A stretch of DNA of 64,000 bases from assembly GCF_055900595.2 (NCBI RefSeq), contig NZ_CM148325.1. The stretch is one strand, 5' to 3'. The position numbers were made by a program, and so were the translations under genes. This document shows, piece by piece, positions 24,938 through 25,302 of this stretch. The notes under the pieces were generated by a model that was not told the DNA's origin, searched no databases, and was given only the letters and a program-made list of their open reading frames with translations. Position 1 is the stretch's first letter; each line of letters begins with the position of its first letter.

Positions 24938-24980
24938 AAAAAACCGCCTCAGTTCTTTCACCAGAACAGGCGGTTTTTAA
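24938..24980. terminator. bidirectional intrinsic terminator (yebY on plus strand, RyeA on minus strand)
   Basis: AAAAAACCGCCTCAGTTCTTTCACCAGAACAGGCGGTTTTT. Confidence 0.75.
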
Positions 24981-25215
24981 CATTTAAGCTGATGACCACC
25001 ACGCTTTTTATTGACCATTTTGCACGCAAACTGGAAAACCTGGCGTCGTCATCTATTCTTAAAGGGCAAGGCAACTAAGCCTGCATTAATGCCAACTTTT
25101 AGCGCACGGCTCTCTCCCAAGAGCCATTTCCCTGGACCGAATACAGGAATCGTGTTCGGTCTCTTTTTATCTGTTAAAAGCCAGAAGCATTCCCTTCGCT
25201 GACTATATAGTCAAC
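24945..25215 (-). ncRNA. ryeA: sRNA RyeA (SraC), antisense partner of SdsR; ends approximate
   Basis: Known overlapping antisense arrangement with SdsR; minus-strand terminator at 24938-24980; 5' end not determinable from sequence. Confidence 0.4.
25066..25169 (+). ncRNA. sdsR: sRNA SdsR (RyeB)
   Basis: GCAAGGCAACTAAGCCTGCATTAATGCCAACTTTTAGCGCACGGCTCTCTCCC... ending in terminator ACCGAATACAGGAATCGTGTTCGGTCTCTTTTT; matches my recollection of SdsR and its yebY-pphA location. Confidence 0.7.
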
Positions 25216-25302
25216 CATAACACACACTCTACTGTCTGAGTCCAGCGTTTTTTAACATTCTTGTTAAGATTATGTGATCTTTAGCGCGGGAGGAAAATAT
25301 TG

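Follow-up and report, generated by a model that had tools for sequence, protein, structure and literature searches.

We examined the spacer between yebY and pphA in a 64,000-nt stretch of DNA (contig NZ_CM148325.1 of assembly GCF_055900595.2; this whole stretch is called the window, and all positions are numbered from its first letter), which an earlier note, made from the letters alone, had taken for the site of the overlapping antisense small RNAs SdsR and RyeA. The spacer is bordered by two protein-coding genes on the plus strand, yebY at 24567-24908 (Pfam DUF2511, E 7.9e-45) and pphA, which encodes the PrpA phosphatase, at 25303-25959 (Pfam Metallophos), both of them annotated in MG1655 and in RefSeq. 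The start of pphA is TTG 25300 in the mechanical ORF list and ATG 25303 in the MG1655 and RefSeq annotations. With a probability that we put at about 97%, the spacer holds the E. coli chromosomal sdsR/ryeA locus, that is, two non-coding RNA genes that are convergent and overlap fully. What this analysis showed directly is which locus this is and where it lies, the sequences of its promoters and terminators, the structure of the RNAs and the pattern of conservation.

An Rfam scan of the whole 64-kb window at the gathering threshold gave four matches, two of which lie in the yebY-pphA spacer. SdsR_RyeB (RF00111) was matched at 25069-25168 on the plus strand with 114.4 bits (cut-off 38, E 1.8e-21, model positions 1-100 of 100) and SraC_RyeA (RF00101) at 25172-25028 on the minus strand with 175.1 bits (cut-off 37, E 2.9e-40, model positions 1-145 of 145). 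Hence, both families that the earlier note had expected within 24940-25230 are present, full length and far above their gathering scores, and its proposal of an SdsR/RyeA antisense pair between yebY and pphA was borne out. In a permissive Rfam scan of 24800-25400, the only signals beyond the two RNAs were sub-threshold matches to rliE and mir-255, both of them chance matches on the terminator hairpin.

The region from 24880 to 25320 (441 bp) is 95-99.8% identical to the corresponding sequence in 5425 of 5426 complete E. coli genomes. In the curated MG1655 record, relative to which the window is in reverse orientation, two RNA genes are annotated between pphA and yebY, ryeA (b4432, 1923066-1923337, 272 nt) and sdsR (b4433, 1923104-1923207, 104 nt). 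When aligned with the window, sdsR falls on 25065-25168 (plus strand) and ryeA on 25206-24936 (minus strand), so that the K-12 reference annotation occupies the same bases as the RNAs proposed here. From these mapped coordinates, it follows that SdsR lies wholly within RyeA, and RyeA carries the full complement of SdsR at RyeA +39 to +142. The closest RefSeq genome, annotated by PGAP, has no non-coding RNA in the yebY-pphA spacer, a gap that reflects the limits of that annotation and does not count against the RNAs.

In the interval from yebY to pphA, four substitutions and one indel set the window apart from K-12. The substitutions are at 24968, within the terminator stem (a U-A pair here, in place of U-G in K-12), at 24986, and at 25192 and 25205, which are positions +15 and +2 of the RyeA 5′ leader; the indel is in the A run at 24938-24943, which is one base shorter here and leaves the U tail of RyeA one residue shorter. 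There are no changes at all in SdsR (RyeB), which shares with K-12 b4433 its site after yebY, the TATTCT hexamer, the C at -13, the three stem-loops and the AGGAAUC loop. Apart from the differences just listed, RyeA (also SraC, Tpke79 or IS091) has the same strand, extent, TATGGT -10 element and terminator as K-12 b4432. In summary, this is an ordinary sdsR/ryeA locus, known in detail, and nothing in it departs from K-12 toward new biology.

The sdsR promoter occupies 25031-25059 on the plus strand and consists of a -35 element CTGGAA (25031-25036), a 17-nt spacer that includes a C at -13 (25053) and a -10 element TATTCT (25054-25059). With its C at -13, it is predicted to be a promoter of the sigma-S type; the sigma-S dependence of sdsR and the role of C-13 have been described previously (PMC3333887, PMC6610125). 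The TATTCT hexamer, unchanged here, is the one replaced by primer PM_SdsRR in the work of Choi et al. 2019 (PMC6610125). Across the species set described below, C-13, T-12, A-11 and T-7 are invariant in all 109 listed species, as is the TGG at -34 to -32.

SdsR itself extends over 25066-25168 (plus strand, about 103 nt; RF00111), its ends being taken from K-12, where primer extension and 5′ RACE placed the start 1 nt further downstream than the older annotation did and the 3′ ends at +100 to +102 (PMC6610125). The K-12 primer extension start corresponds to exactly 25066, the position given as the start in the earlier note and 1 nt downstream of the annotated end, and the RF00111 model begins 3 nt inside it. 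The 3′ end had been put at 25169, which is right to within 1 nt; the actual 3′ ends are at 25165-25168, in a T run at 25164-25168. The distance from the yebY stop (24908) to the SdsR start is 157 nt, which is also the median in the 107 other species listed.

The predicted fold of SdsR (-35.2 kcal/mol, z -3.8) was better than those of 200 out of 200 shuffles of its own sequence and comprises a 5′ hairpin (25066-25084), a conserved single-stranded region at about 25085-25107 that contains the RNase E site near nt 31 (PMC5137417), a second stem-loop (25108-25125) and a terminator hairpin (25134-25162) with the loop AGGAAUC (25145-25151), followed by five U (25164-25168). The terminator was also called by a consensus terminator scan. 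SdsR thus has three stem-loops and ends in a Rho-independent terminator, and covariation was found in its helices, as follows.

We scanned one genome per species with a pattern for the SdsR core (25100-25128), which identified at least 120 loci, of which the 109 with full flanks were analyzed. These listed loci come from the Enterobacteriaceae, Yersiniaceae, Pectobacteriaceae, Hafniaceae and Erwiniaceae. The bases 25100-25128 are conserved by construction, as they are the search pattern, and were not counted as evidence. Over the 109 listed loci, identity to the window was 0.80-0.97 from the sdsR -35 element (25031) to the SdsR 3′ end (25168), and it fell to 0.32 at 25169-25206 and was 0.38 in the RyeA-only 3′ part (24980-25030); the conserved block therefore spans 25031-25168 only and ends sharply at 25169. 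Within SdsR, the bases outside the search pattern were 91-100% identical among the listed loci. Of the 108 listed loci with enough flank, 107 have a YebY homologue upstream in the same orientation, and a PphA homologue was found downstream in only 6 of 88 listed species. Both the conservation of SdsR and this pattern of flanking genes agree with Froehlich et al. 2012 (PMC3333887). SdsR was also borne by two contigs, one labelled Chryseobacterium sp. 18061 and the other Flavobacterium psychrophilum MAG, at 94.7% identity to a Citrobacter locus and 93.8% to a Phytobacter locus, and these contigs are most likely contaminating or mis-binned Enterobacteriaceae DNA.

The helices of SdsR are maintained by compensatory changes. 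In 70 distinct sequences, the terminator helix was 100% paired, with three pairs changed on both sides, a value reached by none of 500 shuffles. The 5′ hairpin was left out of the pair count made on the MAFFT alignment, since its variable loop length was misaligned, and the sequences were folded singly instead; the hairpin formed in 70 of 70 distinct sequences with stems of differing sequence (such as GGC/GCC, GGUU/AACC and AGAC/GUCU). Stem 2 is invariant and partly fixed by the search pattern, and so it is uninformative on covariation. The terminator loop AGGAAUC is itself unusual for a terminator loop, in that each of its positions is invariant or at least 90% conserved in the 70 distinct sequences. 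This near-invariance fits the report, in a 2024 paper, that the SdsR terminator loop itself mediates the repression of fepA (PMC11979758), where mutants of the terminator loop and stem are reported to lose this regulation.

The 3′ end of SdsR is also a place where mobile DNA enters. In about 238 of the 5425 E. coli genomes (about 4%), the locus is split into two places, and in the cases examined the cause was either a prophage at the SdsR 3′ end or IS1; the window itself has neither insertion. In E. coli FDAARGOS_944, an IS1A element lies, according to the annotation table, between yebY and pphA (5249-5946 of that locus sequence) and homology to the window resumes at about 25075, so that the rest of sdsR should be cut off from its promoter and 5′ end. 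In E. coli 2015C-4498, a lambdoid prophage directly follows the SdsR 3′ end (20001-21500 of that locus sequence, against 25146-25169 of the window); its first genes are those for a tyrosine integrase and an excisionase, and the final ~16 nt of SdsR have given way to the variant GTATTCGGTCTTTTTTT; a second att copy was not seen within the 20 kb examined. This junction matches the known phage att site formed by the last 23 bp of ryeB (Balbontin 2008, as cited in PMC7380047).

Given this known att site and the prophage with its integrase gene that adjoins it, one could suppose that the 3′ end of SdsR is conserved as an attachment site kept by recurrent integration, and not for the function of the RNA. 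We consider this very improbable. The conserved stretch measures 138 bp, reaching from the -35 element to the T run, and is not limited to 23 bp, and the terminator helix shows the compensatory changes described above. Phages commonly choose conserved RNA genes as their targets, and hence the causal order is most likely the reverse.

Besides the two RNAs, the spacer contains short open reading frames, none with a Pfam match, which the earlier note had dismissed as spurious and which are so judged here. The example that it named, a 63-aa ORF at 25011-25202 on the plus strand, has a TTG start and overlaps SdsR; it matches no Pfam family and is annotated neither in MG1655 nor in the closest RefSeq genome, its TTG is kept in 2 of the 109 listed species, and its stop is scattered over 25178-25331, so it is not regarded as a gene. 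A small plus-strand protein could in principle be encoded either by this frame or by one opening at ATG 25089 (MPTFSARLSPKSHFPGPNTGIVFGLFL...) and translated from sdsR-pphA read-through, in which case sdsR would be a dual-function RNA or the translation would be coupled to pphA expression. The second frame has something to recommend it, as ATG 25089 and the 27 codons after it are retained in at least 96 of the 109 listed species and the read-through transcript known from K-12 would supply a stop codon (PMC6610125). However, conservation of the amino acids follows from the nucleotide identity of SdsR outside the search-pattern bases (91-100%), and the substitutions that do occur in this frame are paired ones that keep the helix and alter the amino acid (for instance, GGA to AGA and ACA to ATA). 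There is no Shine-Dalgarno sequence before TTG 25011 or ATG 25089, SdsR contains no in-frame stop codon, and the 63-aa ORF varies freely in its C-terminus and stop. We therefore give hardly any credence to a protein from either frame, and translation of the 25089 frame from read-through, with the dual function or the coupling that it would bring, seems to us scarcely to be expected. For annotation, the lesson is that the yebY-pphA spacer is not empty and that the short ORFs in it should not become gene calls.

On the minus strand, RyeA (SraC) extends over 25206-24936 and is 271 nt long here and 272 nt long in K-12 (RF00101; MG1655 b4432 by alignment). The fold of the whole RNA (z -4.2) was better than those of 200 out of 200 shuffles. 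Its predicted promoter, an extended -10 element at 25222-25214 (TGTTATGGT), consists of the hexamer TATGGT (25219-25214) preceded by TGT, and the start at 25206 lies 7 nt downstream of the -10. As this element is downstream of the SdsR terminator, a transcript initiated there would be antisense to the plus strand and would span all of sdsR. In the work of Choi et al. 2019, primer PM_RyeAF replaces ACCATA, which corresponds to 25214-25219 read on the plus strand, and the element is identical here to that of K-12. Of the two holoenzymes, sigma-S and sigma-70, only the latter transcribes ryeA in vitro (PMC6610125).

Two candidates for a -35 element of ryeA, TGGACT (19 nt from the -10) and GACTCA (17 nt), were considered and neither is convincing. 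With a TGn extended -10, a -35 element may be dispensable. Upstream of the ryeA -10, a block GTCCAGCGTTTTTT at 25240-25253 is kept in many Enterobacteriaceae, and it could be a poorly spaced -35, an UP-like element for ryeA or something else.

The 3′ end of RyeA is formed at an intrinsic terminator located at 24938-24978, which is composed of six A, a stem CCGCCT...AGGCGG with an inner GTTCT/AGAAC helix and five T. An inverted-repeat search found it as a perfect 11-nt repeat (24939-24949 and 24968-24978, AAAAACCGCCT and AGGCGGTTTTT), and it was also apparent in the fold of RyeA; the consensus terminator scan did not call it, as the 18 nt between the outer arms exceed the loop limit of that tool. 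On the plus strand, the hairpin begins 30 nt past the yebY stop codon (24908) and is followed by five T. On the minus strand, the hairpin runs from 24978 to 24939 and is followed by six T, at which the RyeA 3′ end lies. In K-12, RyeA 3′ RACE ends were mapped to +261 to +270 and the RNA terminates in vitro without Rho (PMC6610125). Since the K-12 ends fall in the tail of the hairpin and it has T/A runs on both sides, the description of 24938-24980 in the earlier note as a bidirectional terminator that can serve RyeA is accurate, and the hairpin ends yebY on the plus strand and RyeA on the minus strand. The interval 24938-25230 given there for the pair holds both RNAs and falls slightly short at its low end, the RyeA 3′ end being at 24936, 2 nt outside it.

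The antisense gene was followed through the same 109 listed species. In 62 of them, the antisense strand has the motif TGnTAyrr in the 160 nt that follow SdsR, versus 7 of 109 on the sense strand. Bidirectional terminators were counted by an explicit search for an A-tract, a stem and a T-tract, and such a hairpin follows yebY in 68 of the 109, with differing stem sequences. The two occur together in 55 listed species, that is, the antisense -10 motif is present in 55 of the 68 species with the terminator versus 7 of the 41 without it. The distance from the SdsR end to the antisense -10 is 47 nt here and about 75-84 nt in most listed species, a greater spacing that fits the SraC of Salmonella and Shigella, which is ~35 nt longer than the E. 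coli form, at its 5′ end (PMC3333887). Among the listed loci, those of Yersiniaceae, Pectobacteriaceae and Hafnia have neither the antisense -10 nor the bidirectional terminator, and outside the Enterobacteriaceae most have neither.

These data bear on whether RyeA has a role of its own. It could be that only SdsR is selected and that RyeA is a lineage-variable antisense by-product, owed to promoters that remain beyond the SdsR 3′ end, some of them in phage-derived sequence, in which case there would be no true pair and no toxin-antitoxin system. Froehlich et al. 2012 (PMC3333887) took RyeA for a by-product, and the halt of conservation exactly at the SdsR 3′ end, the identity of only 0.32-0.38 in the RyeA-only segments across the listed species, the differing distance to the antisense -10, its absence together with that of the terminator in Yersiniaceae, Pectobacteriaceae and Hafnia, and the replacement of the RyeA 5′ end by phage DNA in lysogens all point the same way. 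On the other hand, the excess of the antisense extended -10 over the sense-strand control and its co-occurrence with a terminator able to stop antisense transcripts are at odds with a mere by-product, as is the effect of a ryeA -10 mutation in K-12, under which SdsR and pphA go up and the mRNAs of tolC and yhcB go down (PMC6610125). On balance, we find it unlikely that RyeA lacks a role of its own. Our reading is that SdsR is a strongly selected gene and RyeA a real but evolutionarily looser antisense partner that is largely confined to the Enterobacteriaceae.

In E. albertii, Salmonella, K. oxytoca and Yokenella, part of the SdsR 3′ end is repeated 60-90 nt after SdsR (GTATTCGGTCTTTTTTGG or similar), and this second copy is followed by TTATATCA, which has the form of an extended -10 on the antisense strand. 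The arrangement resembles a trace left by an old integration event in which the ryeA promoter was moved.

Published work on K-12 and Salmonella is the source for the dependence on sigma factors, the binding of Hfq, the targets, the processing by RNase III and RNase E, the interference and the toxin-antitoxin behavior, and this mechanism should be applicable here because the sequences are the same. In K-12, the holoenzyme that transcribes sdsR contains sigma-S, and the one that transcribes ryeA contains sigma-70 (PMC6610125). Here, sdsR would be transcribed from its sigma-S-type promoter at the entry into stationary phase or under stress, and ryeA would be made during growth from a sigma-70 promoter with an extended -10 and would end at the hairpin shared with yebY. 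SdsR would bind Hfq and repress mRNAs in trans through short base-pairing that involves two regions. It has been reported to have two Hfq sites and to be cut by RNase E at nt 31, which yields a ~70-nt form with a different target set (PMC5137417); here, a cut at about nt 31 would likewise remove one of the two pairing regions. The targets reported are ompD, tolC, mutS, yhcB, crp, stpA and fepA (PMC3333887, PMC5137417, PMC11979758, PMC6610125). SdsR is a core enterobacterial sigma-S small RNA with links to the control of porins and efflux, to mismatch repair and to the uptake of iron.

SdsR and RyeA would limit each other in two ways. The transcription of ryeA would interfere with that of sdsR and would also lower the read-through transcript that carries pphA, which in K-12 is reported to be expressed mainly by read-through from the sdsR promoter (PMC6610125). 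The same logic is described for other trans-acting small RNAs with a cis-encoded antisense antagonist (PMC8687705, which also discusses SdsR/RyeA): an RNA from the opposite strand, complementary over its full length, opposes the trans-acting RNA, and RNase III cleaves the duplex; their sequences are unrelated to SdsR/RyeA. The SdsR-RyeA locus is a textbook case, in which SdsR has an antisense partner that gates both its own expression and that of pphA.

The pair has also been classed as a type VIII toxin-antitoxin system, in which the RNAs are on opposite strands, and it is one of the two experimentally validated loci of this type in TADB 3.0. The other, creTA, is CRISPR-Cas-linked and unrelated in sequence. 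In K-12, the toxicity of SdsR was that of overexpressed SdsR acting via the repression of yhcB (PMC6610125), and growth arrest or killing by SdsR and its neutralization by RyeA are reported for that strain (Choi 2018, as cited in PMC6610125; TADB 3.0). As the locus is the same here, it would belong to type VIII through its sequence identity with the K-12 locus.

The two remaining Rfam matches lie elsewhere in the window. The family "cspA thermoregulator" was matched at 40662-41121 (plus strand) with 136 bits (cut-off 78), largely via its coding part; from the protein that the aligned sequence encodes, it is a cspA paralogue, which to judge by its position is cspC. The small RNA sroD was matched full length at 60169-60254 (plus strand) with 115 bits (cut-off 50).
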